A stretch of 64,000 nt of DNA, from positions 70,361 to 134,360 of the forward strand of contig JAKLFA010000004.1 of assembly GCA_022711395.1 (NCBI GenBank), written 5' to 3'. This document shows, one piece after another, positions 20,079-45,073 of the stretch. The first letter of the stretch is position 1, and every line of letters begins with the position of its first letter. The position numbers and the translations under genes are program-made. The notes below the pieces were generated by a model. The model made no database searches, was not told the origin of the DNA, and worked only from the letters and a program-made list of their open reading frames with translations. The stretch is from Candidatus Omnitrophota bacterium. GTDB taxonomy: Bacteria; Omnitrophota; Gorgyraeia; Zapsychrales; JANLHA01.

Positions 20079-20432
20079 TTAACCCTTGCGGCAAGATCTC
20101 GCTGGTTCACACTTATCAGAAACCTTTTTTATCTGAGATTTAATCATCCGCTCGGTTTTTTCCAGCTGTGACAGCTCCTGCAACAGCCTTTTCATCTGTT
20201 CCGTTTGTTTGCCGGTTTTCAAATCCTTCACATAGGTCTTTCCAATACGGGCGAACACTCGATCTTTTTTCAAGCTTAACGCTGTCGAATCAAGATGCAA
20301 TTTCCCTTGTTTGGAAAAAACAACCAGCTGCTGCTCCCCCTTTTTAGCCAAAGCTAAGGCCTCTTTGCTCATCAGCATTAGCTTTTCCTTGATCTTGGGC
20401 CAGTCCTTCTTAAGGTCATATTGGTCAGGCAT
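20079..20432 (-). CDS. Hypothetical Lys-rich coiled-coil protein (weak phasin-like flavour).
   Basis: 117 aa, highly charged (K/E-rich) and helical. I recognised no catalytic motif. Confidence 0.35.
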   Translation of the reverse strand: MPDQYDLKKDWPKIKEKLMLMSKEALALAKKGEQQLVVFSKQGKLHLDSTALSLKKDRVFARIGKTYVKDLKTGKQTEQMKRLLQELSQLEKTERMIKSQIKKVSDKCEPARSCRKG

Positions 20433-20821: not shown

Positions 20822-20855
20822 AAAAGCCCTCTTCAGAACGAAGAGGGCTTTTTGA
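20822..20855. terminator. Bidirectional rho-independent terminator between convergent genes.
   Basis: AAAAGCCCTCTTC-agaac-GAAGAGGGCTTTTT: a 9-bp GC-rich stem with a 5-nt loop, flanked by an A-run on one side and a T-run on the other. It serves both the plus-strand small gene and the minus-strand giant gene ending at 20888. Confidence 0.6.
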
Positions 20856-20887: not shown

Positions 20888-23800
20888 TTATAACATCAAT
20901 GCTTCCTGCTCCTCACGGATCATTTGGCTCAATTCACGACCCGGGGCTTCCCCAGAACCCTCATCCGACCCAAGCAAAAACGGCAACGTCTGCACCGGAG
21001 TCGTATTGATAAGGATCGGGACAAATCCTTCAATGCGCATCTCTTTGATGGGCTGTTCCGGCAAAGGCAGCGGGATCCCGCGGTCATCACGGCGGATCTG
21101 CAGGTCCAGAAATTTAGGGTTCAAATCGATACCACCGACCGGAACCCTATCACTTTCACCGGAAGCCCTTCCCAAAACAGCAGAATTGACCATTTCCTGC
21201 TCGCGCATTTCCCGTCGGTCTGCCAAAGACTGCCAGGCCGAGGCCAGTTCCTGGCGCACGGCGCGTTCATAATCGGCACTGACACTCTTTCCGCTGGCAC
21301 GATCAGCATCGATCTGGCGCAATTCTGTTTCTTTAGCAAACACCCTCCTTAAATCCGCCTGATCGGACATCAACCGTTCCCGATTCAATAAAGACAATTT
21401 TTCAGAGAATCTCCCCGGCCCTTCCTGTTTTAAAAACTCCCTGACCTCACTAAAAGTCGCCCCGCCATTAAGATCATACGCCGCCATCACCCAGGCAATA
21501 CTTACAGCATCTTCAGCGGCTTCCCGTGACATTTTAGAAGCTTCCTGCGCCGCAGAAACAACGTCAAACGCGTTTCCAGTCCCCTCAAACAAGCGCTTGA
21601 CCTTTTCTTTATCAGAGGCCTGTATCCCCAGCTCCGTGGCGAACGCTTCAACAGCATGGTCAATGATCGTCGGATTACCATTGGCGGCGACCTGACGGGA
21701 TTCAAAACCTGAAGCCCCGGTCCCATTCAAAACAGCTTCAAAAAGCCGGCCATATTCACGGACCATCGTATGAATATTGACCCTTTCATGGGCGGAGCGA
21801 AACGACCTCTCCATTCCCTTTAAAAGCTCGTCAGAGCCCCGTTCTACGTAATCATAGTATTGCTGCGCCGCCTCGGTCATGTAATCGCCGAGCTGCCGCT
21901 GCGCTTCCCGATGAAAGGTCTCGAGCACTCTCGGATCTTTATTTTCAAATCCTCGAATGACATCATCCAAAGACCACTCCTTAAAAACATCGATCAGCCA
22001 GCCATTCTGACCATGGACCACCCAATCCAACGGCCCACCCGTCGCCGTGGCAATGACCTTACGCCCATTGAACCCAGCGCGCTGATCGCTCGTACCCGAA
22101 GCCTCTCGGGTGTGGCGCGGTAAAACCAGCCAAAAGTCGCTGGCCGAGACTGCCAGCCGCATGATCTCCACACCGGTATCCGGAACAAAAACGATCTTTC
22201 CTTTCAGTTCAGGACGGTTCTGCAGTTCACGAAAACGCCTGGCCCAATCCTTTCCGACATCATCACGCCCAGGCCCGCCGATAAAAAGATTAGACCCTAA
22301 GCCCTTACGCCTCCCCCAAGGCGTGTCATATTCCTGTTCCCGATCTCCCGTGATCCAACGGACCAATTCAAGCAAAAGCCCCTGTTCCTTATATTCCACC
22401 AAGCGGCGTAACGCACCGAATATCGGACGGTTCAGATCAGTGAACTGATTATAACCTTTGCTTCCCAGCCACTGATTGAGGTCTTCCTTGGCCTGCTGCC
22501 CAGACTCAAAAAGGTCCTGTCCGGTGATCTGTTCCATACCCTTTTGATGAATGCGGGACGCCAACTGCGGTGAATACCACTGCTTTGGATCAGAGCCGTT
22601 CTGAACACCGGTCGTCTTCCAGCGTTGATTGGGAAGAACCAGCCTCTTTGTAACTTCAGCGTGTTCTAACGAAACCCCATTAACGACAGATGACATGTGT
22701 GCCAAAGCTTCCGCCGCGTTAACGACCCGATGGTCGCCATCCTGAATGACGATCGAATCAGGGACCAGGTCATTGCCCAGGGCACCTCGAAGCCAGTTCA
22801 CATCATAAAAGACCGGCAGCGCCGCCCGTTCCGGAGTATGCGTTGTCATGACCACACGGGAAGCATCAAAGACGCTCTTTGATCCATTATTCATACTTTT
22901 GAAAAAATCCCGGTCATTCTGCATGGCCACTGCCACAAACAGCATCTGCGGCTCGCTCAAACGGACGATATCCGGGGAGATCCCGACTCTTTTCACCAAT
23001 TCAACAAAAGCCCTTCCGATAAAACCGTATTGCACGATCTGTTTTGTCCCATCGGGATAAATATTCTCAAAGATCTTCGGCTGACGAAGCAAGAACACAG
23101 GCGTGCCGTTGCGGTTAACCCAATACACGTCGACCGGATAATCTTTAGTGTGATTGAACTCCACATTAAACGATAAAGGAACAAGCTCTCCGCGCTCATT
23201 GCGGACCATGACCCTCTTGATCCCCTGTTCGTTATCCCAGTCGATCCTTTGACGATCCTGTCCCTCCTGATAATATTCATACAACGGCATCACGCCGATC
23301 GAAGAAAACTTCCGAAGGTCCCGGTAAGCCCCCCAGGTCTCACCGGTCAAAAACCCAAGGCCGCCTTTCCCCTGAGCGTTTTGCGCTAATCCCTGGAGTT
23401 CAGGCAAAAACGCTTCCAGCGACACATCCGCCACGACTTTTTTTCCGCCGGAGCGCTGAAAAAAATCATCCAACGGTGTTTCCTGAAAGCGCAAAACAGC
23501 CGCATTGGTCGGACGCGAAACATCTTCAACAGCTTCAGGAGTGGCATTTTCCACCAAACCCACATCCCGCCAGGCGCGCGTGGATCCGGGCACGCCCTGC
23601 AAACCCTTGCGCACAAGCCGCGCACTGTTGCGTCCAAGATCTTCCAAACGGCCTCTCAAGCGCCCCGCCTCAACTTCTTTTGTCAAACCTTCAGGGTCAA
23701 ACCCGCCGGAAAAATACCGGCGAGGGATGACCTGCTGAACAGACGGATCGTACTCTTCCTTAATATAGTCGTAGACCCCTTTGCGGAACGCATCCAAATA

Positions 23801-24769
23801 CTGTTCATAGATCTTGTTCTTTATCTCCCGGTCATCGATATCGATCCCCTTGATCTTGTTCTGATCAACATAGACCGTCGACAAAAGACTTTCCTTTAAC
23901 GCGACCTTATACCACGTCGCCAGGACCATCGCATTGTAGATCTGACGCAAGCGGGCGAAATTCTGCCCTTCATTCACTTCTTTTTCGATCTCAGGGATCA
24001 AGACCTCCCGGATGACCTGCGAAGACACATCATTGGCGATCTTCGCATTCTCCTCCTTAAGGTCCTGAAGACCAAACGCTTGATCATTCAACCCTTCTTT
24101 TAAAGCTAAATAATCCTCTTCCAGCATGACCTTAAGGCTGCTTTGGACCACGTAGGCCGCCCCGTCATACTCATAAACAACAGCTTCTTTGGGGACGATC
24201 CATATCTTGTTAAAGGTCGCCATCGGGATCTCGGTCGTCCCAAAGGCCTCTTTAGCTTTTTTATGCACACGCTGCCAAAAATCTTTTCCCAGGCCCTCTT
24301 CGGGATACATCAGGCTTGCTGTCAATTGTTTCAAAAGGTAATCCTGCGCCAAAAGGTCCGTACCCATTTCAGTCACTCCAAAGGACGGCGGAATGATGCG
24401 GTCCCCTTCATATGGAGAAAGGTTAACCCACATCTCCTCTTCAGGAACGGTCAAGGCCGCCAAAAAATAGCGGACCATCTTCAGCGTTTCCTGATCAAGC
24501 GCTTCATCCTTAAGATCGGAATTGCCGGTATCAATAAGAAATGAGAACTGAAGCGGATTGACCGGGTCAGGACGAATACCGGTAATAACAGCAGGAACAT
24601 ACCCGGGGCTGGTGGAAACCATGGTTCCCGGAAGAGGTAAAGATGGTAAAATTTGTGCGGAGGAATTCAGCGGAGGAATTACAAGGGTGAAACAAAAGAT
24701 GAAAACAGTAACTAAACTAATGACGCGTTTAAAATAATGGGCTTGTTCTTTTTTACAAATGCAATTCAT
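20888..24769 (-). CDS. Giant exported multidomain protein: signal peptide, a conserved N-terminal module shared with the next gene, a GT35 alpha-glucan phosphorylase-like core (PLP Lys apparently replaced by Arg), a helical region, and a shared C-terminal PLPLP module.
   Basis: 1293 aa. A Sec-type signal peptide (MNCICKKEQAHYFKRVISLVTVFIFCFTLVIPPLNSSAQ) is present. Residues ~40-360 are about 70% identical to the N-terminal module of the 1570-aa neighbour. GT35 motifs are GGLGFLTGETWG, MTTHTPERAALP, VNGVSLEHAEV and EASGTSDQRAGFNG (consensus EASGT[SG]NMK). The C-terminal GGIDLNPKFLDLQIRRDDRGIPLPLPEQP...GFVPILINTTPV segment matches the neighbour's C-terminus. Confidence 0.8.
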   Translation of the reverse strand: MNCICKKEQAHYFKRVISLVTVFIFCFTLVIPPLNSSAQILPSLPLPGTMVSTSPGYVPAVITGIRPDPVNPLQFSFLIDTGNSDLKDEALDQETLKMVRYFLAALTVPEEEMWVNLSPYEGDRIIPPSFGVTEMGTDLLAQDYLLKQLTASLMYPEEGLGKDFWQRVHKKAKEAFGTTEIPMATFNKIWIVPKEAVVYEYDGAAYVVQSSLKVMLEEDYLALKEGLNDQAFGLQDLKEENAKIANDVSSQVIREVLIPEIEKEVNEGQNFARLRQIYNAMVLATWYKVALKESLLSTVYVDQNKIKGIDIDDREIKNKIYEQYLDAFRKGVYDYIKEEYDPSVQQVIPRRYFSGGFDPEGLTKEVEAGRLRGRLEDLGRNSARLVRKGLQGVPGSTRAWRDVGLVENATPEAVEDVSRPTNAAVLRFQETPLDDFFQRSGGKKVVADVSLEAFLPELQGLAQNAQGKGGLGFLTGETWGAYRDLRKFSSIGVMPLYEYYQEGQDRQRIDWDNEQGIKRVMVRNERGELVPLSFNVEFNHTKDYPVDVYWVNRNGTPVFLLRQPKIFENIYPDGTKQIVQYGFIGRAFVELVKRVGISPDIVRLSEPQMLFVAVAMQNDRDFFKSMNNGSKSVFDASRVVMTTHTPERAALPVFYDVNWLRGALGNDLVPDSIVIQDGDHRVVNAAEALAHMSSVVNGVSLEHAEVTKRLVLPNQRWKTTGVQNGSDPKQWYSPQLASRIHQKGMEQITGQDLFESGQQAKEDLNQWLGSKGYNQFTDLNRPIFGALRRLVEYKEQGLLLELVRWITGDREQEYDTPWGRRKGLGSNLFIGGPGRDDVGKDWARRFRELQNRPELKGKIVFVPDTGVEIMRLAVSASDFWLVLPRHTREASGTSDQRAGFNGRKVIATATGGPLDWVVHGQNGWLIDVFKEWSLDDVIRGFENKDPRVLETFHREAQRQLGDYMTEAAQQYYDYVERGSDELLKGMERSFRSAHERVNIHTMVREYGRLFEAVLNGTGASGFESRQVAANGNPTIIDHAVEAFATELGIQASDKEKVKRLFEGTGNAFDVVSAAQEASKMSREAAEDAVSIAWVMAAYDLNGGATFSEVREFLKQEGPGRFSEKLSLLNRERLMSDQADLRRVFAKETELRQIDADRASGKSVSADYERAVRQELASAWQSLADRREMREQEMVNSAVLGRASGESDRVPVGGIDLNPKFLDLQIRRDDRGIPLPLPEQPIKEMRIEGFVPILINTTPVQTLPFLLGSDEGSGEAPGRELSQMIREEQEALML

Positions 24770-24890
24770 TACACATTCTCCCCTTTAAATCGTTGTGATG
24801 AGATTTAGATGTGTACTATCATTGCCGCCATGGCACCCGCGTCAACCAGATGCCATGACGGTCAATAAACTTTGCAAAGAACAGATTTTT

Positions 24891-27800
24891 TTAATTCAGC
24901 AAAAAGGAAAGATCTCCCTGAGGGCCCGAAGCCCTTTTTTCCCTTTGCTGTGGAGAATCCGCCACCCCCAAAATAAGCGGGAGATTGCGCACCGGTGTCA
25001 TCTCAATGATCACCGGATAGAACCCGTCGATCTTCAATGTCTCAAGCGGCTGCTGCGGCAACGGCAGCGGAACCCCATTCGCATCACGCTCGATGGTCAA
25101 ATTCAAAAATGCCGGATTGAAGTCGATACCACCTTTTTTCCATCTGGCCTGTTCGGCCATCTGAGCAGGGTTCAAAACAGCGGCATTGGTCTCTTGCATA
25201 AACCCTTCCCATTTAGCAATAAAATCCAAACCTTCAGGGATGTCTTTTAAGCTCTTCAGGTCATGGATCAATTCCTGCGGACTATGCCTAAACGCAGCAA
25301 CTTTTCCCGCTGCCGCTAATTGAGTCACATCGCCGGTAACCATTTCGGTGTAAAGGCTGTCACCTTTCACGCGCAGATACCGCGGCAGATTGACCTCCGC
25401 AACGACTTCTTTTAATCCTTTAATGGAATACCAATTACGGAACGCGTTATAGGGCCATTTTTCTTTTCCGGAGCGATCCAAAACCTGCTGAAGATCCGAT
25501 GTTTTTAGCGCTAATGTTTCTGCCAAAAACGTCTTTCCCGTCGGCTTATGGTGCAAATAACTTCCGCCTTTCTGTCCCTTGGGGTTCCCAACAAGCTCGA
25601 TCCCGATAGCGACACCTTTATCCATCTGGTCCATAAAGTAGGCCAAACGGTGAACGCTCCCGACGTCTTCTGTCCACATGGTGAGGTCATTAACACGCTG
25701 CGTGCGGATGACATCAACTCCGCGGGACTCCAAGACATCTAAAAGATTCTGTTCAACTTTGACAAACACCCCCTGTGCATCCATCGTATAAACCTGGCCC
25801 TGCACTTTGAATTGTTCAAGCGCATAGCCATGGCCCGGAGGCAGCTGTTGGCTATTGCCATTAAAGTGCATTTCACCCTGTTCATCGGGAGAAAACCCTT
25901 TAAAAACCCGGTCGGTCAAAATATAAACATTCTCGCGGTTAAAACCATAAAAATCATTGGCAAACAGATCTTTGGCCGCCTCCTCAAAGATCATGTCATT
26001 AAAATGCACAACGATCTTTGTTTTGGCAATGACATCGTTGATGTCCTTTCCTTGCTCCTGGGCCAGTTTTTCAAGGAATTGACGATACGCGATGATCTGG
26101 CGGGGGCCCATTCCCTGATCAGACTCTGCCAATTTGAGTTCTTGATCATATTTTTGGGCTAGATCCTCTAAATACTTCTTCATTCCAGCCTCATCAAAGA
26201 CCTTGGTCTTCTCATTGGTAAATGTCTCCACCAATTTCTTTTGAAGGCTCGCGCGCTGCTTCTCTGTCAGTTTATTGGGACGGCCTAAAAGCGCCGCTAC
26301 AACATCTTTAATTTCGATGCTGTACATGGACCCTAATCCTAACCGGGTCGCAGCCCCGCCGAAATTGAAATGCGGGGTGATCTTGCCTTCTAGATAGGCG
26401 TTACGGGCCTCGGGCAATCGTGCCTCAACAGCCTTGTATTCAGAAACAACGTCCACCTGGCCAGCCTCGAGGTCTTCAGATTTCACAACCTCACCGTTGA
26501 TCCGAAGCGCGTTGACTTCATTCACCACGCGCTCAAGTTCTTCATCCTGCTTCTCTCGAAGGGCCTTGAAAAAGTCCATTTTTCCTTCAGCGCTCATTCG
26601 GGCGAGCAGATCTACGACGTCCTGCCCCATCTTAGCCTGTTCTTCATCGCCTGACAGAACCGCCGCGTTGGTCGGATCTGCCTCCTTGGGAACAAACTCA
26701 TTGTATTGTGCAATATGCTGCATGGCCCGTCCGAGATCCTGCGGGGCCTTCATATCCCGGATCACTTCCGGTTTTTCCTGATCGCTTTTCATATCCTTTT
26801 GATCATTCAACTGAAAAGCGATTACATCATTCGGAGTAAGGGCGAGCTGCGTGATATCTCCCGTCACCATTTCCGTATAAAAATAAAATTTTCCATCTTT
26901 TTCAACGACCCTCAAATACTTTCTCAATCGGGCGTTTGTCAGCATTTGCTTTAAGCCTGTAACTGTATAAAGATTCCGGAATGCATTGTAGGGCCATTCT
27001 TCTTCTCCGCTGTTATTATACAGTCCCGCGTATTCAGGTGATCTCATGGCAAGCGTTTCAACCAGAAAACTCATTCCTGCCCCACCACCTATATTCTCAG
27101 TGACCCATGTCCCACCTTTTTGTTTTCCCGGATTGGCCACAAGTTCAATTCCAACCTTGGCGCCGTCATTTGCAACTTTATCCAGGAAAAACGCAACTCG
27201 TTTAACACTACCGACATCTTCTGTCCATAAAGAAACATCATTCACGCGTTGAGTACGAATCACTTCAGCCGGTGTTTCCCGACCACTTAACAACTGAAGC
27301 AGGGTTTTATCGATCACCAAAGAAAGAACTCCTTTGGAATCCAGCTTCCAAACCTGCTGAACACGGTTGAACTGCTCCAACGCAAACCCGTGCCCAGGAG
27401 GAAGTTTTCCGCTTTTATCTTCAAATTTTGTACCACCATTATCTGTCAGCGAAAATCCCTGAAACACATCATCAACCAAAACATAAACATTTTCGGCATT
27501 AAACCCATAAAATGAATGCGCCTTCAGATCCTCAATGACATCACTGAAAATCTCTCCGTTCAAATGAACAATGATCGGTGCCTGGTTGACAACTTTCTTA
27601 GCCTTCTCGGGATTTGTCCCATCAGGATCGGCTAGTTTCTCAAGAAAGACCCTGTAAGCGATGATCTGACGTGGGCCCATGGGAATATCTTCACGGCCAC
27701 TCTTATTAAATAAATCGAGCTCTTTTGTTAAAGTCGCTTTAAAACTGTCTAAAGCCTGTTGCCGTTGCTCCGCCGTCCACTCTTTCGCATTTTCTTTTTT

Positions 27801-29603
27801 ATATTTATCCGCCAAATCATCCAAGTATTTCTCAACATTGTTTCTCAATCTTTTCTTTTGTTCATCTGTCAAGCCATTCTCTTGCCCAAGGATATCCTTC
27901 ACCGCATCCGTGATCTTGACTCCATACATCGACCCCACAAAACGTGTTGCCCCGCCGCCAAAGTTGAAATGCGGGACCACTTTTCCTTCTAAATAGCCCT
28001 CTTCGGCTTCGGCCAATCTTTCCGCAGATAACGGATAGCGAGCCAAACTATCAACGCCTTTTCCTCTCCCCAAAGACGTTGGATCAATAACTTTTCCTCG
28101 AATACTCACTTTATTAATACGATCAACTATCGTTTCAATCCTTTTCTTCCAAGATTTTACCTCTTCTTCACTATCTCCTGCCGGTCCCTTCTTTATCTCC
28201 TCAGTCAACGCTTCCCAAGCAACAACAGTTTTCCCATTAATCTGCACTCTTTGCTGGACCAACCCCTCAATATCCCGCCCCATATCATCCTGCAACCGAT
28301 GGCGTTCATCATCTAATATGGAAGAATTAACTTCAGCCGCAGTCGCATTCTCAACCAGGGCTGTGGTCAGATCCACATCCATGGACCCTTCCGGTCCCTG
28401 CAAACCTTCGGCGACTAACGCAAGCTGTTCTTGAGAAAGAACTGCTCCATTGGTCCCATCACCGTTGATGCGGCTTGCGCGGATATTGTCCTGCAGCGTC
28501 CGGCCTTGCGCGTCACGCTGCGCGTCAAACCCGCCGGAAAAATACCGTCGGGGCATGAATTGGCCGGTCAAAGGATCTTCTTCCTCACGGATATATTCAT
28601 AAACACCTTTGCGGAAGGCCTCAACATACTGATCATAAATCGCGGTCCGGGTGGCTTCTGAATCTTCCAGATCCACGCCTTTGACCTTGTTCTGATCCGC
28701 GTAAGCCTGACCCAGCAGCGTTTCTTTCAAACTCATCTTGTACCACGTTGCCAAAACCATGGACTGATAGATCTGGCGGAGCTTGGCGAAATTTTCGCCC
28801 TCGTTCACTTCCTTTTCAATTTCAGGGATCAGGACCTCACGGATCACCTCAGAAGAAACACCACTGATCTCCTCAGCGGCATCATTGGTCTTTACGTTCA
28901 TCCCATACTGCGCATTGCCGATATTTTCACGCAAAGCCACATAATCCTCTTCGAGCATCACCTTCATGGAACTTTTCACAAGATAGGCTGCCCCATCTTT
29001 TTCGTAAACGACCGCTTCATTGGGAACGATCCAGATCTTCGTAAAGGTGCTGAGCGGAATATGCGTCGTGCCGAATTCTTTCTGCGCCCGGGCATACACC
29101 CTGTCCCAAAAGGCCTTGCCCAGATCTTTTTCCGGATACATCAAACTGGCCGAAAGCTGCTTTAACAGATAATCCTGGGCCAAGAGGTCCATGGCCATTT
29201 CGGTCTGGCCGAACGATGCCGGGACCACACGATTGCCTTCATAGGGAGACAAGTTGACCCACAGATCCTCTTCCGGAACGGTCAGCGACGCCAAAAAATA
29301 TTTGATCAATCGGACAGATTCTTCCCGAAGGGCCAAAGGATCAGCCTCCTCGTTTCCGGTATTAACAATAAAATGGAACTGCAACGGATTTTCCGGATCA
29401 GGACGGATGCCTTTGATCAAGACCGGAACATAGGTCGGACTGGTTGTGACCATTGTTCCAACGGCCGGCAATGTGGGCAAAATTTGCGCCTGAAGCGCAG
29501 ATGGCGGAATAATAAATGAGTTTAAGAACGTCAGGACAAGCAGGATCCTAAAGGCTTTAGTAAAAACGGTCTTTTCGGCAGAGTGATTCCGGTGCAGAAA
29601 CAT
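24891..29603 (-). CDS. Giant exported multidomain protein: signal peptide, shared N-terminal module, two tandem UDP-glucose-pyrophosphorylase-family (UDPGP-like) nucleotidyltransferase domains, and shared C-terminal PLPLP module.
   Basis: 1570 aa with signal peptide MFLHRNHSAEKTVFTKAFRILLVLTFLNSFIIPPSALQAQ. The two internal repeats (aa ~520-930 and ~1055-1450) each carry PHFNFGG(G/A)ATR, PPGHG, RTQRVND and KGG(T/S) motifs. These resemble the eukaryotic-type UGPase/UAP motifs LNGGLGT, PPGHGD and VKGGTL. The N- and C-terminal modules are paralogous to the 1293-aa protein. The UDPGP family assignment is from motif recall only, hence moderate confidence. Confidence 0.75.
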   Translation of the reverse strand: MFLHRNHSAEKTVFTKAFRILLVLTFLNSFIIPPSALQAQILPTLPAVGTMVTTSPTYVPVLIKGIRPDPENPLQFHFIVNTGNEEADPLALREESVRLIKYFLASLTVPEEDLWVNLSPYEGNRVVPASFGQTEMAMDLLAQDYLLKQLSASLMYPEKDLGKAFWDRVYARAQKEFGTTHIPLSTFTKIWIVPNEAVVYEKDGAAYLVKSSMKVMLEEDYVALRENIGNAQYGMNVKTNDAAEEISGVSSEVIREVLIPEIEKEVNEGENFAKLRQIYQSMVLATWYKMSLKETLLGQAYADQNKVKGVDLEDSEATRTAIYDQYVEAFRKGVYEYIREEEDPLTGQFMPRRYFSGGFDAQRDAQGRTLQDNIRASRINGDGTNGAVLSQEQLALVAEGLQGPEGSMDVDLTTALVENATAAEVNSSILDDERHRLQDDMGRDIEGLVQQRVQINGKTVVAWEALTEEIKKGPAGDSEEEVKSWKKRIETIVDRINKVSIRGKVIDPTSLGRGKGVDSLARYPLSAERLAEAEEGYLEGKVVPHFNFGGGATRFVGSMYGVKITDAVKDILGQENGLTDEQKKRLRNNVEKYLDDLADKYKKENAKEWTAEQRQQALDSFKATLTKELDLFNKSGREDIPMGPRQIIAYRVFLEKLADPDGTNPEKAKKVVNQAPIIVHLNGEIFSDVIEDLKAHSFYGFNAENVYVLVDDVFQGFSLTDNGGTKFEDKSGKLPPGHGFALEQFNRVQQVWKLDSKGVLSLVIDKTLLQLLSGRETPAEVIRTQRVNDVSLWTEDVGSVKRVAFFLDKVANDGAKVGIELVANPGKQKGGTWVTENIGGGAGMSFLVETLAMRSPEYAGLYNNSGEEEWPYNAFRNLYTVTGLKQMLTNARLRKYLRVVEKDGKFYFYTEMVTGDITQLALTPNDVIAFQLNDQKDMKSDQEKPEVIRDMKAPQDLGRAMQHIAQYNEFVPKEADPTNAAVLSGDEEQAKMGQDVVDLLARMSAEGKMDFFKALREKQDEELERVVNEVNALRINGEVVKSEDLEAGQVDVVSEYKAVEARLPEARNAYLEGKITPHFNFGGAATRLGLGSMYSIEIKDVVAALLGRPNKLTEKQRASLQKKLVETFTNEKTKVFDEAGMKKYLEDLAQKYDQELKLAESDQGMGPRQIIAYRQFLEKLAQEQGKDINDVIAKTKIVVHFNDMIFEEAAKDLFANDFYGFNRENVYILTDRVFKGFSPDEQGEMHFNGNSQQLPPGHGYALEQFKVQGQVYTMDAQGVFVKVEQNLLDVLESRGVDVIRTQRVNDLTMWTEDVGSVHRLAYFMDQMDKGVAIGIELVGNPKGQKGGSYLHHKPTGKTFLAETLALKTSDLQQVLDRSGKEKWPYNAFRNWYSIKGLKEVVAEVNLPRYLRVKGDSLYTEMVTGDVTQLAAAGKVAAFRHSPQELIHDLKSLKDIPEGLDFIAKWEGFMQETNAAVLNPAQMAEQARWKKGGIDFNPAFLNLTIERDANGVPLPLPQQPLETLKIDGFYPVIIEMTPVRNLPLILGVADSPQQREKRASGPQGDLSFLLN

Positions 29604-29664: not shown

Positions 29665-29811
29665 AAAGGGGCGTATTAAAAGTATATATTATAGAAAAAC
29701 GGATGGCAACCTTATTTAAAAAAAATAACATGTTGCGGATAAAGAACTTAAGGCGTTTTCGGGCCCGAATAATTAAATATTGCCGCAAGCGCTTCCCTGA
29801 AAATACTCCAA

Positions 29812-31248
29812 TTATTCACAAAAACTTTGCCCGCGACGACACAATTCCTTGGCATATTCGGTCCAAAGTCCTGACCCCCAATAGCGGAAACAGCTGGTTT
29901 GTGACAACAGCAGATACAAAAACGCATTCTGATACGCGCTGGATTGAACTTCTTTTTGGGTTGTGCCCTTAAATTTTCGATGGAATGCCGCACTCAGCTG
30001 ATTAATAGGGTCCATGACGTCCCCATAGCCGGCGACCCAATCCCGGTCATTGGTCCAGGAAGCCCTGTCCAGATTAAAACCCCGGTCTTTCTGTTTGATG
30101 CGGTCAATGGCTTGATCAGCCGCACCGGGGCCGTAGTTGCCGTTCATTTCAGACCAGATCCTGTGTTGATTGATCGGTTGGACAGGCAAAAAGTCCTTCT
30201 CCAAAACCCCTTCTTTTTTCAAAAGATCCAAGTATTCCGAACCGTTCAAACCCACGACACCGGTTGTGCCGACCCCATCAAACCCGATATTATAATCTCT
30301 CGGAAATTCATTCATCATGACCCCGCCGTTTTCCCCATCGCCGATCTGTAAAACATACAAAGGAATATTCTTGCCGGCATAATCTTCACGCCCGCGGCCA
30401 CGGGCCTCGGCCAACGGCTGCATTTGCGCGACAAGCTTAGTGTCCGATCCCTGGGTCTTGACCAGCACCGTGATCTCCAGTGTTTCGCCCAGCGAATTTT
30501 TAGCGATCAAACGATGCGGAAGATGCGGGCGGCGGATGCCTGAACCGTCGGGATTCTGGATCGTATGCTCCTGGACCATCAGCCATTCATATCCGCATTC
30601 TTTGAGCGCCTTGACATATTCATAACATTGATCCGGATGGATCGGAAGATGCATCTCCGGCGGAGAAAAGCCCTTGACCCGGCGGACAGCCTCTTCACCA
30701 AAAACAGCCGCGAAATGTTTGCGCCATGCCATGATATGCAGTTTCAGATCAGGAATAGGTGTCGAGGTCGCCACCGCATGAGACCACGTGGTTCCCAGCC
30801 ACTCGGCGTGCGTGAAATATTTCGGGTCACAAACGATCCCGCGTAATGTTTCGATCGTGTCCGAGGCCCCCATTTGAGGGATCCCCCACAAAAGATTGCC
30901 TGAATAATCGAGCATGATCCGCGGATTTTTTCCCCGGCCGACCAGATCCGGAATGAACTGCCCCATGCGCGTGTAGCACTGCAGAAAGACCGGCGCATTG
31001 TGATTATCGCCGACGCCCTGATTATCCATCATGTGTTTCAGATTCGAGATCAATGAGGCATTGCGCAAGTCACCGGCCCCCGCGGGGATCGTCGGCTGAT
31101 GCATATGCAGCGCGATACCGAAGGATGCCTGCAGATCCTTTAGGCGGACATTCGAAACTTTCGCGTAATCAAAATTCGGCCTTAACGCCTCAACATCTTT
31201 GGGAGTAAAAAAAATATCAGGAAGCCCATTGGAAAGGATACCGTTCAT
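29812..31248 (-). CDS. Glycoside hydrolase family 57 protein (alpha-glucan-active; exact specificity unknown).
   Basis: 478 aa with the GH57 HxHQP signature (ALHMHQPTIP). It sits in a block with the GH57 branching enzyme and the glucan synthase. Confidence 0.6.
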   Translation of the reverse strand: MNGILSNGLPDIFFTPKDVEALRPNFDYAKVSNVRLKDLQASFGIALHMHQPTIPAGAGDLRNASLISNLKHMMDNQGVGDNHNAPVFLQCYTRMGQFIPDLVGRGKNPRIMLDYSGNLLWGIPQMGASDTIETLRGIVCDPKYFTHAEWLGTTWSHAVATSTPIPDLKLHIMAWRKHFAAVFGEEAVRRVKGFSPPEMHLPIHPDQCYEYVKALKECGYEWLMVQEHTIQNPDGSGIRRPHLPHRLIAKNSLGETLEITVLVKTQGSDTKLVAQMQPLAEARGRGREDYAGKNIPLYVLQIGDGENGGVMMNEFPRDYNIGFDGVGTTGVVGLNGSEYLDLLKKEGVLEKDFLPVQPINQHRIWSEMNGNYGPGAADQAIDRIKQKDRGFNLDRASWTNDRDWVAGYGDVMDPINQLSAAFHRKFKGTTQKEVQSSAYQNAFLYLLLSQTSCFRYWGSGLWTEYAKELCRRGQSFCE

Positions 31249-31269
31249 AATAGCCCTCGCGGTAGAATG

Positions 31270-32877
31270 TTACTGAATATAATGTTTGGCGCAATCCATG
31301 TCCGAAAATATATTATCACGCCATTCGACTTCCGCCAACCAATCTTCATCGATCTGGTCTTGCAGAATGTCCTCGTAAAGTTTGGTGAAACGGGCAATGT
31401 GCAACCGCACCCGGCGGTTGGCATACGGGACCATGGTCCCTGATTTCATGATGAACGGCCAATCGCTGGCCTCGGCTAGAAGGAGCTCGCGGGCCGCTTG
31501 GTTCAAAGCACGGCGGACCAAGGTCGGCTGGGGGGTCTTGCGGGCAAATTTGGATTTATATTTAGTAGCGATCTCCACCATGCGTTCCCCGGCCTTATGG
31601 ATATGCCGATAGATCCAGTCATTGCCGCCTTCAAGCCAATATTCACTGTAACCTTTATATCCCCAGCTAGATGTCGAAGGAACAGCCATCTGGTTCGTGG
31701 AATATTCCGCCAGATACTCCGACGGAGTAATGGGCTTCACCGTATCCTGGTCAAAATGCATTTTCCGGAAAAGAAAATCCAGGAACATCGGACCTTCATA
31801 CCACCAATGGCCGTAAAGCTCAGCGTCATACGGCGCAACGATCATGGGTTTGCGGTCCATGTAGCGGGTCAGATGCTCGACCTGCTTCTCACGGTTAAAA
31901 AGAAAGTTTCCCGCGTGCTGCGCGGCCTTCTCCCTGGCCCAATCGGGGCGGTAAGCCTCCTTATATTCGCTCTTGCCTGTGATGCGCCAATATTTAATGC
32001 CGGTATTGACCCGGATCCCCGACGGATGAATGTAGGGCTTGATATAATCGTATTCCAGCTCATGGCCGATATCCCGGTAATATTCACGGTAATCCACGTC
32101 CCCCGGATAGCCTTCCTGAGCGCTCCAGACCTGTTTAGAAGATTCCCAATCACGTCCAAAAGCCGCCACACCTGCCGGCGTATAGATCGGCGCGTAAACA
32201 CTGTAACGTGGCCTCGGGTCAGCATTGATGATCCCGTGCGAATCCACGAAAAAATATCTTAAGCCCGCCTCCTTTAAGATCTCCTCCACGCCCGGCACAA
32301 ACCCGCATTCCGGAAGCCATATCCCTCGGGGTTTACGGTCAAAGACTTTTGTGTAATGCTCGACCGCGACCTGGACCTGCGCCTTGGCGACCTGCGGGTT
32401 CACGCCCAAGATCGGCAAAAACCCATGCGTGGCGCAGCAGGTGATGATCTCAAGGGCCCCGATATCCTGAAAATACTTGAACGCGCTGACAATGTCGCGG
32501 TTCAAATCCTCGGCGAAGAGCTTGCGGAATTCACGGAACCGGTGATTATACATGAGCGCCAGCCCATGATAATGCGGCTCGTAACCCGTGCGATGGATCT
32601 CCTGCTCGGAGAGTTGAATAAGCTTGTCCAGATGGCGAATGTACCGTTCCTGCAGAAGCGGGTCCTGAAGCATATTGATCAACGGCGGCGTCAAAGACAT
32701 CGTGATGCGGAACTTGACCTTGTCCCTCACAAGCCCGTCAAACACCTTTAAAAGGGGAATGTAGGTCTCTGTAATGGCTTCATACAACCAGTTTTCTTCG
32801 AGAAAATATTCTTCTTCAGGGTGGCGGACAAAAGGCAGATGCGCATGTAAAACTAGAGCGAGATATCCTTTGGGCAT
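31270..32877 (-). CDS. GH57-type 1,4-alpha-glucan branching enzyme.
   Basis: The N-terminus LALVLHAHLPFVRHPEEEYFLEENWLYEAITETYIPLL is near-identical in pattern to the Thermus/Thermococcus GH57 branching enzymes. The downstream blocks HGFLPILG, YDAELYGHWWYEGPMFLDFL and LLLAEASDWPFIM also match. Confidence 0.85.
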   Translation of the reverse strand: MPKGYLALVLHAHLPFVRHPEEEYFLEENWLYEAITETYIPLLKVFDGLVRDKVKFRITMSLTPPLINMLQDPLLQERYIRHLDKLIQLSEQEIHRTGYEPHYHGLALMYNHRFREFRKLFAEDLNRDIVSAFKYFQDIGALEIITCCATHGFLPILGVNPQVAKAQVQVAVEHYTKVFDRKPRGIWLPECGFVPGVEEILKEAGLRYFFVDSHGIINADPRPRYSVYAPIYTPAGVAAFGRDWESSKQVWSAQEGYPGDVDYREYYRDIGHELEYDYIKPYIHPSGIRVNTGIKYWRITGKSEYKEAYRPDWAREKAAQHAGNFLFNREKQVEHLTRYMDRKPMIVAPYDAELYGHWWYEGPMFLDFLFRKMHFDQDTVKPITPSEYLAEYSTNQMAVPSTSSWGYKGYSEYWLEGGNDWIYRHIHKAGERMVEIATKYKSKFARKTPQPTLVRRALNQAARELLLAEASDWPFIMKSGTMVPYANRRVRLHIARFTKLYEDILQDQIDEDWLAEVEWRDNIFSDMDCAKHYIQ

Positions 32878-32943
32878 GCTTTATGAATTCCTATAGAACA
32901 ACGGCCGCACCCAGAAACGCCAACAATACGTCCCTTCGGCGTC

Positions 32944-34398
32944 TCACGCGGCGGCGTCTTCACATTCAACATTTGAAATTTCGCCGTACTCGGTCTTATC
33001 CCGACCGGCAGCCGTGATGATCGAACGTTCGTGTTTCTTATTAAAAGACACAGCCTTAAAATCCAACGGAATATGGGTATCCGTCGGAAGGGCCATCCGT
33101 AATGTAAACGTCCCGTCTTCGCGCAACGGAATGACCTTATCTCCCCAAGTAACTGTCGCGTTAGGTTCCGTCCGGCCGTAAACGATCAATTCCGTTCCAA
33201 GCTCAAAGAAGAATCCCTCTTGGGGTTTCTGACGCTCCGAAGCGCCCCATGAAGAAACCAGCTCGCTGGCTCCTCCTAAGATCTCAACCGTGGGCCGGAT
33301 CTTTCGCCCGCGCATCCATGTTTCTTCTGATGCGCCTAAAAGCATCTTTTTGAAATAATCATATCCGGGAAGGTCCATATCTTCCAGATATTCCAGCATG
33401 ACATCACCTTCCATATCCGTTGCGATCGGTTGCTGGCCACGGCTTTTGCGGCGCTTCAAGATCTTTCTCAAAAGCGGGAACAAGCGGGAATAATACGCCC
33501 TGATGTCCGCTTCGGTCAAAAAGACCTTGAAACGGCGACCATGCGCCGGAACGGATGCCGGAAGCAAACCTTCTTCTTTCTCTCCGGGTTCAAACGCATA
33601 AACATACGGTTGAACCCCGGGAGCCCCTTCCGCTCCTCCTTCAGCTGCCGCATGTTGAACATCCATCCAGACCAGTTCTGAACGCGGAGAAATATATTCC
33701 CTGGGAGTTGTGACACAATTAGACCGCGCCAACGTGAAGAATCTCCCGTCCGGAGCGCGCAGACCGATATCCGCGCAATATGTCACATTATCGCTCCAAA
33801 GGTTGACGTACCAATTATTGGCATCCCTTCCAACAACCACATCAAACCAATGATTGGCGTTAGTGCCGTTGAAATCCACGAACGTCACATCATAAAGCCG
33901 CAGAACATGCACGCAGCGGCCCACTTCATCGCCGATCATAGCCCGCACGTCATCAACCGAAGAAGAGGCGATCTCCCAATACGCATGCACCCAATGCGGA
34001 TCACGCGCCAGAAGAGTGATGCTCGTAGACCCATAATTCTCCGGCATGATCTCGCTGTCCACAAAAACAGCTTTTTTAACACGGCTGACATGATCTAAAT
34101 TGTTCTGGATCATCCCCTGGATCTTAGGATGGTTCATACTCCTGGCAAGGGCGGATTCGACCCTGGCAGACGGCTCCTTGGGCAATGATGCTTTTTTGGT
34201 TGAGCGGGATTTTGCAACCGTAGACTTGACCCTCGGCTTCTTAATCGTTTCCTTTTTAACCGCTGCGGTCTTTGATGATGCCTTTTTCACAGCAGGCTTC
34301 TTGGCAGTTGCTTTTTTTAAAACTTTTTTTATGACTTTTTTGACTGTATCATCCGCCACCATTGACTCCTTAGGTTCCGTAAATTGACAAGACCTCAT
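32944..34398 (-). CDS. Protein with a Lys-rich histone-H1-like N-terminal tail, a DUF4912-like domain and a C-terminal beta-sandwich.
   Basis: The N-terminal tail is KKVIKKVLKKATAKKPAVKKASSKTAAVKKETIKKPRVKSTVAKSRSTKK. DPHWVHAYWEIASSSVDD resembles DUF4912, which I recall as frequently adjacent to GH57 genes. The C-terminal region reads FFFELGTELIVYGRTEPNATVTWGDKVIPLREDGTFTLRMALP. Confidence 0.45.
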   Translation of the reverse strand: MRSCQFTEPKESMVADDTVKKVIKKVLKKATAKKPAVKKASSKTAAVKKETIKKPRVKSTVAKSRSTKKASLPKEPSARVESALARSMNHPKIQGMIQNNLDHVSRVKKAVFVDSEIMPENYGSTSITLLARDPHWVHAYWEIASSSVDDVRAMIGDEVGRCVHVLRLYDVTFVDFNGTNANHWFDVVVGRDANNWYVNLWSDNVTYCADIGLRAPDGRFFTLARSNCVTTPREYISPRSELVWMDVQHAAAEGGAEGAPGVQPYVYAFEPGEKEEGLLPASVPAHGRRFKVFLTEADIRAYYSRLFPLLRKILKRRKSRGQQPIATDMEGDVMLEYLEDMDLPGYDYFKKMLLGASEETWMRGRKIRPTVEILGGASELVSSWGASERQKPQEGFFFELGTELIVYGRTEPNATVTWGDKVIPLREDGTFTLRMALPTDTHIPLDFKAVSFNKKHERSIITAAGRDKTEYGEISNVECEDAAA

Positions 34399-35530
34399 CC
34401 GCTATAATGTCCCATGAAAACACGGACTCAGCTGCGATGCGGCCATTACGGCCCATCCAACGGGCATCATCAAAATCTTCGAACAGCGTCCCGATCCCCC
34501 AGGCGATCGATTCCGGATTATCAGAAATCTTCAGTCCATTGACCTCATGCCAGACGATCTCTGAAGGACCGCCTTTGTCGCTTGCCACAACAGGCTTACC
34601 AGCGCTCCAGGCCTCCAGGATCACGATCCCGAACGGCTCGTTGCGGCTGGGAACGCAAACACAATCCGTCGCCTTAAAGAGATCCTTCAGCTTCCATCCA
34701 TTGACATGGCCCAAGAACCGGCAGGCATGCTTAACGCCCATGTGAAGGGCCTGCTCCTCAACCTGCCGCCTCATTTCGCCATCCCCGGCAAAAACAAATT
34801 TTGTGTTGGGATAATAATTCAAAACATACGGGATCGCGCTTACCAAAAGGTCCACACCCTTTTGATAGACCATGCGCCCCACGAACAAAACCATCGGGTC
34901 CATCGGCCCAATATCATACATCCTCTTAACGCCGGCCGGCTCGATCCAGCCGTCAAACTGGCGATAATCAATCCCGTTATAGACCACATCCACCTTCTCA
35001 TTCGGCGTGCTGTAGATCCATTGCACTTCATTTTTTAAGGCATGCGAAACAGCGATCACATGGTCTGCTTCATAACAAGCTTCCCATTCAATATGGCGAA
35101 TTCGCTCAGAATTGCCTCCAAAGAAATTGTTTCCGCAACGCCCATACTCTGTTGAATGGATCGTAAAAACCGTATGATGCGCCCTTCCCTTTTTAATCCA
35201 ATACATTGCAGGGGCCGCAAGCCAGTCATGCGCATGGATCACGTCAAAACGCCCGACATGGTCTTCTGTTTCAAAAAATGAATTGCAAAAAGACCGGCAC
35301 ATATTATGGATCTCTTCAATAAAATTTTGATTGGAATCAAAAGGGCAGCGGTGATAATGAACACCGTGTATGCATTCATGACGCGCGTGATTAGGGCGTC
35401 CCATCCGGGTAAAAACATGAACTTCATGTCCCTTACGCTGAAGGGCGCAAGCGAGTTCTGTCACATGAAAGGCCACCCCTCCAATATAGATCGAATGAAC
35501 AGCCTCCCAAGACAAAAGTGCAATACGCAT
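34370..35530 (-). CDS. GT4-family retaining glycosyltransferase, probable alpha-glucan (glycogen) synthase.
   Basis: The N-terminus MRIALLSWEAVHSIYIGGVAFHVTELACALQRKGHEVHVFT is typical of the GT-B glycogen/glucan synthases found next to GH57 branching enzymes. The C-terminal GT-B half carries E..G motifs (LEAWSAGKPVVASDKGG). Confidence 0.6.
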   Translation of the reverse strand: MRIALLSWEAVHSIYIGGVAFHVTELACALQRKGHEVHVFTRMGRPNHARHECIHGVHYHRCPFDSNQNFIEEIHNMCRSFCNSFFETEDHVGRFDVIHAHDWLAAPAMYWIKKGRAHHTVFTIHSTEYGRCGNNFFGGNSERIRHIEWEACYEADHVIAVSHALKNEVQWIYSTPNEKVDVVYNGIDYRQFDGWIEPAGVKRMYDIGPMDPMVLFVGRMVYQKGVDLLVSAIPYVLNYYPNTKFVFAGDGEMRRQVEEQALHMGVKHACRFLGHVNGWKLKDLFKATDCVCVPSRNEPFGIVILEAWSAGKPVVASDKGGPSEIVWHEVNGLKISDNPESIAWGIGTLFEDFDDARWMGRNGRIAAESVFSWDIIADEVLSIYGT

Positions 35531-35532
35531 CT

Positions 35533-35995: not shown

Positions 35996-36021
35996 GATGT
36001 CCTCACATGATGAACAGAAAA

Positions 36022-36042
36022 TGTTAACAAGGCGTTAACATC
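36022..36042. promoter_or_regulatory. Perfect inverted repeat ATGTTAAC-aaggc-GTTAACAT in the 5' leader of the XRE-CBM48 regulator gene; candidate autoregulatory operator.
   Basis: Exact 8-bp arms, located 27-47 bp upstream of the preferred start codon and downstream of the putative promoter. Confidence 0.4.
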
Positions 36043-37668: not shown

Positions 37669-37671
37669 TCT

Positions 37672-38628: not shown

Positions 38629-38744
38629 GAAGCGTGCTGAAATAAAAAATCCGGAAACCCACTTACTTCTTCCGATACAGCCCCATACGCGCTATTGCGA
38701 ACACCAAAAAACAAAGGCCATGAACTCTCCGTCCGTCCCAAGTT

Positions 38745-40983: not shown

Positions 40984-41066
40984 AACTGTTTTGGCCGCCC
41001 CACCGAAAATCCGGCCTATGGCCCTTTAATACAACCGTTGAAAAATTATCCCGCTCTTTCAACACG

Positions 41067-42077: not shown

Positions 42078-42092
42078 TCCGGCATTCTGGTA

Positions 42093-43208: not shown

Positions 43209-43222
43209 TTTCTAATTCACCG

Positions 43223-43942: not shown

Positions 43943-43956
43943 CGTCTACCTCACTT

Positions 43957-45060: not shown

Positions 45061-45073
45061 AGAATCACCTTTC

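Follow-up and report, generated by a model that had tools for sequence, protein, structure and literature searches.

The window analysed here, meaning the whole stretch of DNA under study, comprises 64,000 nt from a Candidatus Omnitrophota bacterium (GCA_022711395.1, contig JAKLFA010000004.1, positions 70,361-134,360, forward strand). Our subject is a pair of adjacent minus-strand open reading frames (ORFs), p2 (24891-29603, 1570 amino acids) and p1 (20888-24769, 1293 amino acids), which carry the same modules at their two ends and different enzyme-like cores between them. All of their parts given below are on the same strand. Both proteins are present at NCBI as a "hypothetical protein" of Candidatus Omnitrophota metagenome-assembled genomes (MAGs), p2 as HSA30250.1 and p1 as HSA30251.1 and HRZ39723.1. 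A preliminary description of this DNA had presented them as adjacent paralogs of exported type with common end modules, and we confirmed both ORFs at these coordinates and, by BLASTP, the shared modules.

From the N-terminus, p2 consists of a predicted Sec-type signal peptide (amino acids 1-39; 29487-29603), an N-terminal module (N-module, amino acids 41-365; 28509-29483), two tandem domains related to uridine diphosphate (UDP)-sugar pyrophosphorylases, and a C-terminal module (C-module, amino acids 1487-1546; 24966-25145) that reads GGIDFNPAFLNLTIERD..GVPLPLPQQP..IDGFYPVII..TPV..LP.ILG. The N-module was delimited by BLASTP against p1 and is 87% identical to that of the syntenic ortholog P0123. 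Core repeat 1 (amino acids 481-975; 26679-28163) was assigned as UDP-sugar-pyrophosphorylase-like by repeat and profile comparison, and core repeat 2 (amino acids 1010-1465; 25209-26576) was assigned to the UDP-sugar pyrophosphorylase fold from an AlphaFold model and Foldseek. In p1, a predicted Sec-type signal peptide (amino acids 1-38; 24656-24769) and the N-module (amino acids 40-360; 23690-24652) are followed by an alpha-glucan-phosphorylase-like core of the GT35 type (TIGR02094-like, amino acids 426-1045; 21635-23494), a helical region, and the C-module (amino acids 1211-1268; 20966-21139), which was located by BLASTP against p2 and with a C-module profile. Upstream of p2, in a gap of 208 bp, is a promoter-like site, TTGCCA-17-TATACT (29681-29709, minus strand), which is a consensus match only, at 10 of 12 positions. 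Just downstream of the p1 stop codon lies a strong terminator-like hairpin (20822-20852, minus strand) with a 14-bp stem followed by a T-run. Since no comparable hairpin was found between the two genes, this arrangement suggests a p2-p1 operon.

BLASTP aligned the N-terminal regions of p1 and p2 at 54-57% identity over 414-456 amino acids (E 3e-150) and their C-terminal regions at 52% identity over 75 amino acids (E 1e-20), with nothing significant in between. For the N-module proper, the identity is 64.6% over 322 amino acids, so that the sharing claimed in the preliminary description holds at a value slightly lower than its ~70%; likewise, the C-module is shared as claimed, but its conserved length is ~60-75 rather than ~90 amino acids. 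The rest of the window contains no further copy of either module. Neither one has a match in Pfam or NCBIfam, and profile searches of the PDB sequences with both returned only low-complexity noise. A model of the N-module showed a mixed alpha/beta structure with long helices (predicted local distance difference test, pLDDT, 71.5; below 55 in the last third), and a fold search with it, the structural check that had been proposed, found no match in the PDB. The C-module has a beta-like alternating sequence pattern; it was modelled at a pLDDT of 45-63 with no regular secondary structure, despite ~55 aligned sequences. The giant-protein preprints, the phylum survey of Seymour et al. 2023 and the Velamenicoccus papers make no mention of either module. 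By these comparisons, the N- and C-modules are shared, non-enzymatic and, as had been supposed, undescribed.

Several candidate identities for the modules were considered, and most were rejected. A match to OMP_b-brl_4 in the N-module protein P0068 is spurious, as its score of 29.9 bits is below the cut-off of 30 and the matched region overlaps the N-module, and matches to DUF896 in seven members had E-values of 0.03 or worse. The GG of the C-module motif GGIDLNP might be read as a double-glycine cleavage site of a C39 peptidase; on reading the sequences, however, the upstream hydrophobic pattern of such a leader is absent. A split domain, of which each module would be one half, is weakened, though still conceivable for the C-module, by the many complete N-module proteins that have unrelated short tails and no C-module.

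Are these modules specific to the two proteins? A search with the N-module scored 2739 word-matched candidates, of which 839 proteins had E<=1e-3; the best 120 of the 839 are 52-65% identical, and almost all the named ones among them are from Candidatus Omnitrophota. At least 595 N-module sites were confirmed by tblastn in species-representative genomes (one per species), nearly all labelled Omnitrophota, with several sites per genome and tandem arrays; one MAG contributed up to six of the 80 loci that were kept. Across the 79 loci analysed we counted 105 N-module ORFs, many of them arranged in tandem; L021 and L074 each have four consecutive ones (L and P numbers are our own labels for loci and proteins). 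Approximately 71 of these ORFs are complete N-module ORFs, and 63 of them end with a C-module at the extreme C-terminus. An exhaustive search with a C-module profile returned 4592 cluster representatives, 1534 of them at E<=1e-10. In the best 150 matches, which include proteins as long as 5312 amino acids, the C-module is in every case confined to the last ~100 residues and almost always matches as a single stretch. An N-module stands at the N-terminus of 65 of the 92 C-module representatives of at least 450 amino acids, and many of those without one look N-terminally truncated, several not starting with Met. The family ranges from 0.5 to 5.3 thousand amino acids (kaa), and a minimal member, P0081 (500 amino acids), consists of a signal peptide, the N-module, a linker and the C-module.

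Some database labels within the family depart from this taxonomy. L074 (DYOU01000027.1, Candidatus Elulimicrobium sp.), with its four tandem family genes, belongs to a contig assigned by NCBI to Candidatus Elulimicrobiota (Patescibacteria group), and many other family loci are labelled "uncultured Planctomycetales". Two partial matches labelled Heimdallarchaeota and Pacearchaeota are probably mis-binned.

To survey what lies between the modules, we scanned 52 passenger regions against Pfam, and ten members individually. Metabolic passengers include phosphoglycerate kinase (PGK, E 1e-107), enolase, acyl-CoA dehydrogenase, RmlD, alanine dehydrogenase, UDPGP and phosphoglucomutase, and others are PPDK_N, PP2C, CofD, a methyltransferase, response-regulator receivers, HATPase_c and HEAT repeats. 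The members scanned individually yielded PGK (L071), GT2 (L058) and NUDIX (L027), with no Pfam match in the other 7 of 10. The recognisable passengers are thus mostly of cytoplasmic type, and many passenger regions have no annotation. The check proposed in the preliminary description, whether homologs of the modules are fused to other enzymes in related genomes, thus found such fusions, with PGK, enolase, acyl-CoA dehydrogenase, GT2, NUDIX and others. As the passengers in these thousands of proteins are unrelated, the modules are very probably generic bookends of a family, and are not tied to glucose-1-phosphate.

Two features of the family bear on its location. Signal peptides were judged by rules (charge of the n-region, hydrophobicity of the h-region), and the A-x-A↓Q ends were read by eye, the arrow marking the predicted cleavage site. 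The N-terminus of p1 reads KKEQAHYFKR / VISLVTVFIFCFTLVIPP / SSA↓Q and that of p2 ...KTVFTK / AFRILLVLTFLNSFIIPP / LQA↓Q, in which the Leu at -3 is suboptimal. Both have a positively charged n-region and a hydrophobic stretch of ~18 amino acids, with ILP(S/T)LP after the cleavage site, so that charge, hydrophobicity and c-region follow the Sec-type layout previously assigned to them. Within the family, 92 of 94 N-termini combine a net-positive n-region with a hydrophobic h-region; the h-regions are rather long (15-20 amino acids), and the c-regions of the listed N-termini typically end in A-x-A↓Q, followed by LPxPG. There is no transmembrane-like segment in p1 or p2 besides the signal peptide, and their C-termini have no hydrophobic helix (best 19-residue Kyte-Doolittle window 1.25-1.26) and end in polar or acidic tails.

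The second feature is the near absence of cysteine. Mature p1 and p2 contain no cysteine in 2785 amino acids, compared with 1.37% in 40 other genes of the window (P ~2e-17), and all three cysteines of p1 lie inside its signal peptide. The 63 complete family proteins contain 50 cysteines in 95,520 amino acids (0.05%) vs. 1.04% in 287 neighbouring ORFs, and 35 of the 63 are free of cysteine; 65 further representatives contain 32 in 116,555 amino acids. Cysteine exclusion is recognised in exported and in self-assembling extracellular proteins of bacteria, in autotransporter passengers and in S-layer proteins, and it has reportedly been described as a signature of exported proteins. The near-total exclusion found here fits export, and p1, p2 and the family as a whole are probably extracytoplasmic, as judged from these two properties of their sequences.

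A short motif recurs where domains meet. TN[AG]AVL was said to occur four times in the pair, and indeed does so: directly after the N-module of p2 (TNGAVL, amino acids 384-389; 28437-28454), between its core repeats (TNAAVL, amino acids 978-983; 26655-26672), directly before its C-module (TNAAVL, amino acids 1472-1477; 25173-25190), and directly before the GT35-like core of p1 (TNAAVL, amino acids 421-426; 23492-23509). The variant VNSAVL is found directly before the C-module of p1 (amino acids 1194-1199; 21173-21190). All of these sites are domain junctions, and a further variant, VNSSIL (p2, amino acid 425), lies inside the linker after the N-module. A relaxed form, [ND][AGSNT]A[VLIM][VLIM] (typically DSAML), occurs 52 times in the 63 complete proteins vs. 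15.7 ± 3.9 times in shuffled sequences. The motif is found in about half of the members, where it follows the N-module, separates passengers or immediately precedes the C-module, and it might serve as a processing site or a docking strand.

The core of p1 is clearly related to the GT35 alpha-glucan phosphorylases, as the preliminary description had it. When a profile of six p1-type cores was compared with the PDB, the top 47 matches were all GT35 alpha-glucan phosphorylases (best 9l6i, E 2e-20), in an alignment spanning both Rossmann halves of the GT-B catalytic domain. The single sequence scores lower: p1 matches TIGR02094 with E 8e-26 at 90.9 bits, below the cut-off of 191.7, and has a weak score for PF00343, also below the cut-off. 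The phosphate site is conserved, LRRLVEYKEQG of p1 aligning to IKRIHEYKRQ of 9uoe_A, and R363, R364, Y368 and K369 are invariant in the alignment of p1-type cores. Like the family (TIGR02094 subfamily; PDB 9l6i), p1 keeps GGLGxLxGE, the RR..YK of the phosphate site and EASGTS. The Schiff-base lysine that defines GT35, within EASGT(S/G)xxK, is replaced in p1. TREASGTSDQR aligns to TEASGTSNMK and EASGTSGEK, placing Arg897 of the EASGTSDQR motif (amino acids 889-897; 22079-22105) at the position of the lysine that binds pyridoxal phosphate (PLP), and arginine is found there in 6 of 6 p1-type cores. Also unlike GT35, p1 has a GT4/GT5-like ATGGPL motif after the arginine position. By alignment, then, the p1 core is GT35-derived and fails one defining feature of that family. 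Given the arginine in place of the lysine, p1 may be a glucan enzyme that acts without covalent PLP, for example on a nucleoside diphosphate (NDP)-sugar, or may only bind glucan.

The p2 core was harder to assign. Its two repeats are 42% identical to each other over 494 amino acids, and a search of 5.8 billion proteins found nine with related cores, making the p2-type clade a rare one among the sequences searched. Nine core repeats scanned against Pfam (including PF01704, E up to 10) gave no match, those to DUF4197, FliJ and HrpB2 being at chance level, the two p2 repeats gave none in NCBIfam either, and a phmmer search of the PDB gave nothing useful. A profile of the nine repeats had eight matches among PDB sequences, all of them UDP-N-acetylhexosamine (UDP-GlcNAc) pyrophosphorylases, at E 0.02-0.1. 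AlphaFold modelled repeat 2 with a pLDDT of ~90, and Foldseek matched this model to UAP1, AGX1 and UGPase in the PDB with E 9e-16 and probability 1.0 over ~460 columns; p2 cores are ~14% identical to the solved UDPGP-family structures. The earlier assignment of tandem UDP-glucose-pyrophosphorylase-like cores was thus right at the level of the fold. With the UDPGP family (PF01704; UAP1/AGX1, UGPase), the p2 cores share the whole-domain fold, a loop resembling GGxxTR(L/F)G, PxGHG and KGG: HFNFGG(A/G)ATR(L/F) aligns to LAGG(S/Q)GTRLG and LPPGHG to P(G/D)GNG. Across the nine aligned repeats, which carry the motifs GG(A/G)ATR, PPGHG and KGG, the residues G73, R77, P245, H248-G249 and K335-G337 are invariant. 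The p2 cores differ from the family in having no PF01704 match and in standing as two tandem domains inside a cassette of exported type, and the Lys of the PKG motif after the nucleotide-binding loop is not conserved in p2-type cores. From the modelled fold and these motifs, p2 probably makes an NDP-sugar from a sugar-1-phosphate.

Such a role fits the architecture of P0124 (1682 amino acids, partial, from a Candidatus Omnitrophota MAG), in which a p2-type core lies downstream of a multi-pass GT2 glucan-synthase-like protein (PF13632, PF02364). This fusion suggests that the sugar nucleotide is channelled to a processive synthase. No N-module is visible in P0124, a partial sequence truncated at its N-terminus. 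A hidden Markov model (HMM) search of the 79 family loci for p2-type cores found only L006, and two passengers with true PF01704 matches are not detectably related to the p2 clade.

We then compared the locus with its closest relatives. In L080 (GCA_038222225.1) the order is the same, namely PMT, HTH-CBM48, GT4, DUF4912, the GH57 branching enzyme, the GH57-like protein, the p2 and p1 orthologs, S15, PNPase and FtsK, and neighbouring genes are mostly 85-90% identical, except for DUF4912 (71.5%) and a small ORF (64%). Pairing of p2 with p1 was seen only in such close relatives (L080 and L081); the p1-type genes of L013, L049 and L066 have no p2-type neighbour within 8 kb. Between p2 and its L080 ortholog, the N-module is 87% and the C-module 88% identical, compared with 44% (repeat 1) and 47% for the cores; for p1, the values are 70%, 81% and 55% for the N-module, C-module and core. 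The modules are more strongly conserved than their passengers. Against the closer L081, the ratio of nonsynonymous to synonymous substitution rates (dN/dS) of p2 is 0.023 in the N-module, 0 in the C-module, 0.057 in core 2 and 0.136 in core 1, and 0.046 in the neighbouring GH57-like gene. Being well below 1 in all parts, these ratios indicate purifying selection and functional genes, and positive selection as the cause of the fast divergence of the cores was rejected (dN/dS 0.06-0.14). The dS of core 1 is raised about four-fold, to 1.8 vs. 0.43 in the N-module and 0.53 in the neighbouring gene, which points to replacement of this segment by recombination, with a mosaic passenger between constant ends.

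Upstream of p2 lies a glycogen-type gene cluster (29812-36030, minus strand), and the earlier statement that p1 and p2 sit in a GH57/GT4 glycogen locus is correct as regards these adjacent genes. Directly upstream of p2 is a GH57-like gene (29812-31248, 478 amino acids) with a marginal match to GH57 (E 1e-4), followed by genes for a GH57 branching enzyme (31270-32877), a DUF4912 protein (32944-34398), a glycogen-synthase-like GT4 (34370-35530) and HTH-CBM48 (35533-36030), all on the minus strand. The GH57-like, GH57 branching enzyme, DUF4912 and GT4 proteins, the four that were checked, have no signal peptide and 4-10 cysteines each. The glycogen enzymes would accordingly not share a compartment with p1 and p2. 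The GH57-like protein, without a signal peptide, is kept beside the p2 ortholog in L080 and L081 (87-95% identity). The DUF4912 protein is the most diverged of the cluster genes (71.5% vs. ~90% for its neighbours), and its N-terminus forms a histone-H1-like tail of ~70 amino acids that is rich in lysine and alanine (KKVIKKVLKKATAKKPAVKK...). HTH-CBM48, at the head of the cluster (L080 1736-2197, 85% identity), joins an XRE-type helix-turn-helix (HTH) to a CBM48/AMPK1_CBM glycogen-binding module and may be a glucan-sensing transcription factor; its N-terminus is uncertain.

Taken together, we judge it somewhat better than an even chance that p1 and p2 belong to a phylum-wide family of bookended proteins whose ends form a generic cassette for export and for sorting or anchoring, carrying diverse passengers out of the cytoplasm. 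A member would consist of a cleavable Sec signal peptide (A-x-A↓Q, then LPxPG), the ~320-residue N-module, the passengers, junction motifs of the form (D/N)-x-A-(M/V)-L at many domain junctions, and the C-module. The signal peptide would send the unfolded chain through Sec, and the modules would act as generic handling modules and not as catalytic partners: the N-module most likely as an envelope-anchoring or assembly handle, and the C-module most likely as a signal for sorting or docking, folded only once a partner is bound. The passengers would thereby come to lie outside the cytoplasm, whether in the periplasm, on the surface or in a coat, or at an attached host cell or within it; in the window, the cargo of the cassette would be a p2-p1 operon concerned with sugar nucleotides and alpha-glucan. 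A bolder extension, which we regard as tentative and less probable, is that a phylum-specific cassette, consisting of the signal peptide, an N-module with a new fold and a docking module at the C-terminus, moves whole blocks of cytoplasmic-type metabolism (glycolytic, sugar-nucleotide, alpha-glucan, acyl-CoA and two-component) out of the cytoplasm. They would then end up in a metabolic space beyond the cytoplasm, in a coat studded with enzymes, or in an attached host cell.

Several points weigh against the cassette. PGK, enolase, acyl-CoA dehydrogenase, UDP-sugar pyrophosphorylases and response regulators need adenosine triphosphate (ATP), uridine triphosphate (UTP), coenzyme A (CoA) or partner proteins, and none of these is expected in the periplasm or on the surface. 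The glycogen enzymes are cytoplasmic, so that any pathway they shared with p1 and p2 would cross a membrane. When ORFs of at least 100 amino acids in the 8-kb flanks of the 79 loci were clustered, the only recurrent groups were family members, antisense shadow ORFs and a CheY-like receiver, and there was otherwise no conserved partner gene and no secretion or sortase-like neighbour. About eight complete N-module proteins have no C-module, and many short ones (400-550 amino acids) have other tails, which indicates that the modules are not strictly interdependent. Finally, the N-module is modelled with only moderate confidence, so that the missing match in the PDB does not prove its fold to be new. 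The CheY-like gene, the only recurrent neighbour outside the family, encodes a stand-alone response regulator of ~146 amino acids; it was found in 10 of the 79 loci, and lies ~6 kb upstream in L025 (~1658).

The preliminary description had proposed that the modules are dedicated scaffolds of one route, from alpha-glucan via glucose-1-phosphate to UDP-glucose, formed by just p1 and p2 within the glycogen locus. The two genes are adjacent, probably co-transcribed and beside GH57/GT4 genes, this order is kept in L080 and L081, and the GT35-like and UDPGP-like cores would suit such a route, as would the p2-type core fused to a GT2 glucan-synthase-like protein in P0124. The synteny, however, also covers PNPase, FtsK and S15, and so reflects general genome relatedness. 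The p1-type genes of L013, L049 and L066 lack a p2-type neighbour, p1 has no PLP lysine, and the glycogen enzymes have no signal peptides. The accompanying claim that both enzymes use glucose-1-phosphate is unproven, given the arginine in all six p1-type cores, and the single-route claim is contradicted by the presence of the modules on thousands of Omnitrophota proteins with unrelated passengers; we consider dedicated scaffolds improbable. A location inside the cell would accommodate both the cofactor-dependent passengers and the adjacency to cytoplasmic glycogen genes. Here the hydrophobic segment would be an uncleaved anchor or a signal for an internal compartment, such as the anammoxosome of other Planctomycetes-Verrucomicrobia-Chlamydiae (PVC) bacteria, and the enzymes would work at the cytoplasmic membrane face or inside an organelle. 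The rather long h-regions (15-20 amino acids) would agree with this, and a preprint argues that many Omnitrophota giants are anchored in the inner membrane with cytoplasmic domains (10.64898/2026.06.07.730766). The main difficulties are the signal-peptide layout and the cysteine exclusion: positive charge before the hydrophobic segment predicts an N-in, C-out orientation, A-x-A↓Q is conserved in most of the listed N-termini, and enzymes of the cytoplasm would not be expected to show a 20-fold depletion of cysteine. The Omnitrophota literature examined also reports no internal compartments, and we hold retention in the cell to be very unlikely.

If the proteins do leave the cytoplasm, two more specific fates deserve attention, each of which we consider possible but rather unlikely. 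The C-module might dock in trans into the N-module of another molecule by strand complementation, giving head-to-tail chains or a surface layer, i.e. a self-assembling coat or filament decorated with enzymes, in which members with only an N-module would be chain ends. This would account for the fact that each protein has a single N-module at one end and a single C-module at the other, for the beta-like pattern of a C-module that does not fold alone (modelled by itself, the N-module is likewise poor in its last third), for the stronger conservation of modules than of passengers, and for the short N-only proteins; a cysteine-free composition is also regarded as typical of self-assembling extracellular proteins. 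Surface display, however, leaves the cofactor-needing passengers unexplained. They would make sense only in a cytoplasm-like setting, and this favours delivery of metabolic effectors to host or prey cells, with the N-module as a translocation or receptor-binding part and the C-module as a secretion signal. The enzymes would then enter an attached host cell, with its nucleotides and cofactors, and rewire or drain its metabolism. Export signatures are present, the constant ends enclose variable, mosaic middles (core 1 dS 1.8 vs. 0.43 in the flanks), and the phylum is host-dependent or predatory. Omnitrophota have been described as host-dependent ultra-small cells (PMC10066038), and the cultured Candidatus Velamenicoccus archaeovorus is an epibiotic predator whose intron RNA was detected in prey cells (PMC13153191). 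Against delivery, no injection machinery is linked to family genes in the 8-kb flanks of the 79 loci, no immunity-like or chaperone genes are adjacent, dN/dS well below 1 everywhere gives no sign of an arms race, and proteins of up to 5312 amino acids would have to cross several membranes.

The export-and-sorting cassette favoured above can also be set beside known systems. Cargo of the type IX secretion system (T9SS) of Bacteroidota likewise combines a Sec signal with one extreme C-terminal domain (CTD) of ~70-90 amino acids, found on many unrelated cargo proteins within one phylum. Such cargo often has Gln at +1, the "Q-rule". However, the C-terminal 100 amino acids gave no Pfam or NCBIfam match at E up to 1, including to the T9SS CTD (TIGR04183/PF18962), and the low-confidence model of the C-module (pLDDT 45-63) shows no folded Ig-like sandwich like that of the CTD. 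The family has an additional 320-residue N-module, its passengers are of cytoplasmic type and not hydrolases or adhesins, and no T9SS genes were seen in the 8-kb flanks of the 79 loci. Polymorphic toxins (Rhs, CdiA, MafB, LXG) are similar in having a conserved trafficking end, swappable payloads with a mosaic history, and multi-copy or tandem genes. Here, in contrast, the payloads are metabolic or signalling domains, both ends are conserved, purifying selection prevails throughout, and no recurrent small downstream gene, as expected of an immunity gene, was found across the 79 loci. SLH domains and cohesin-dockerin cellulosomes also reuse one non-catalytic module on many enzymes for placement in the envelope or in an assembly; there is no homology to them, the family's modules stand at both ends, and its passengers are not polysaccharide-degrading exoenzymes. 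A type V autotransporter does not fit, there being no beta-barrel translocator of at least 250 amino acids: the C-module has ~60-75 amino acids, and the N-module is modelled as mixed alpha/beta, with no match to a Pfam autotransporter domain. PEP-CTERM, LPXTG and GlyGly-CTERM signals are absent, with no C-terminal transmembrane helix and no NCBIfam match.

A further comparison is with the giant proteins of the same phylum (West-Roberts et al. 2023; Nielsen and Lui 2026), which have sugar-metabolism and signalling domains together with signal peptides or transmembrane helices (10.1101/2023.11.21.568195; 10.64898/2026.06.07.730766). Shared Pfam content includes starch-synthase/GT1, PGM, UDP-sugar enzymes, response regulators, HATPase_c, HEAT, NUDIX and PPDK_N. 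Those papers treat proteins of at least 10 kaa and report no shared N- or C-terminal module, whereas the family described here spans 0.5-5.3 kaa and has defined bookends and no internal transmembrane helices.

Omnitrophota are widespread and almost entirely uncultured. Two undescribed modules now mark thousands of their proteins, many per genome, that are annotated only as "hypothetical protein". Profiles of the modules, WVNLSPYE, GGIDLNP and the junction motif provide a handle with which a putative secretome or effector set can be catalogued, the modules can be used for phylogenetic profiling of the cognate machinery across new complete genomes, and direct tests are possible in one cultured system with existing proteomes (PRIDE PXD025008). 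KO-based calls of "glycolysis present" may count module-flanked copies of exported type. Both cores are of enzymological interest, as a GT35-like clade with Arg for the PLP lysine and a rare clade with tandem UDP-sugar-pyrophosphorylase folds. If the bolder extension given above holds, these ultra-small bacteria would possess a secretion or assembly system not known before, and their host dependence would have a concrete mechanism.

Other genes of the window were noted in passing. Downstream of p1, a lysine-rich ORF of 117 amino acids (20079-20432, minus strand) has no Pfam match; its position is kept in L080 (17923-18282), at 64% identity. A 1141-residue protein encoded at 6078-9503 (minus strand) has three domains, those of an MFS transporter, an acyltransferase and an AMP-binding enzyme, and resembles a lysophospholipid transporter combined in a single chain with an Aas-type acyltransferase/acyl-ACP synthetase. 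Beyond the glycogen-type cluster, 36232-55968 is an ordinary chromosomal stretch that includes a PMT_2 glycosyltransferase, a metallophosphoesterase, a Wzx-type polysaccharide exporter and an FkbM methyltransferase, a content that suggests a surface-polysaccharide cluster, and FeoB is encoded at 56051-58066.

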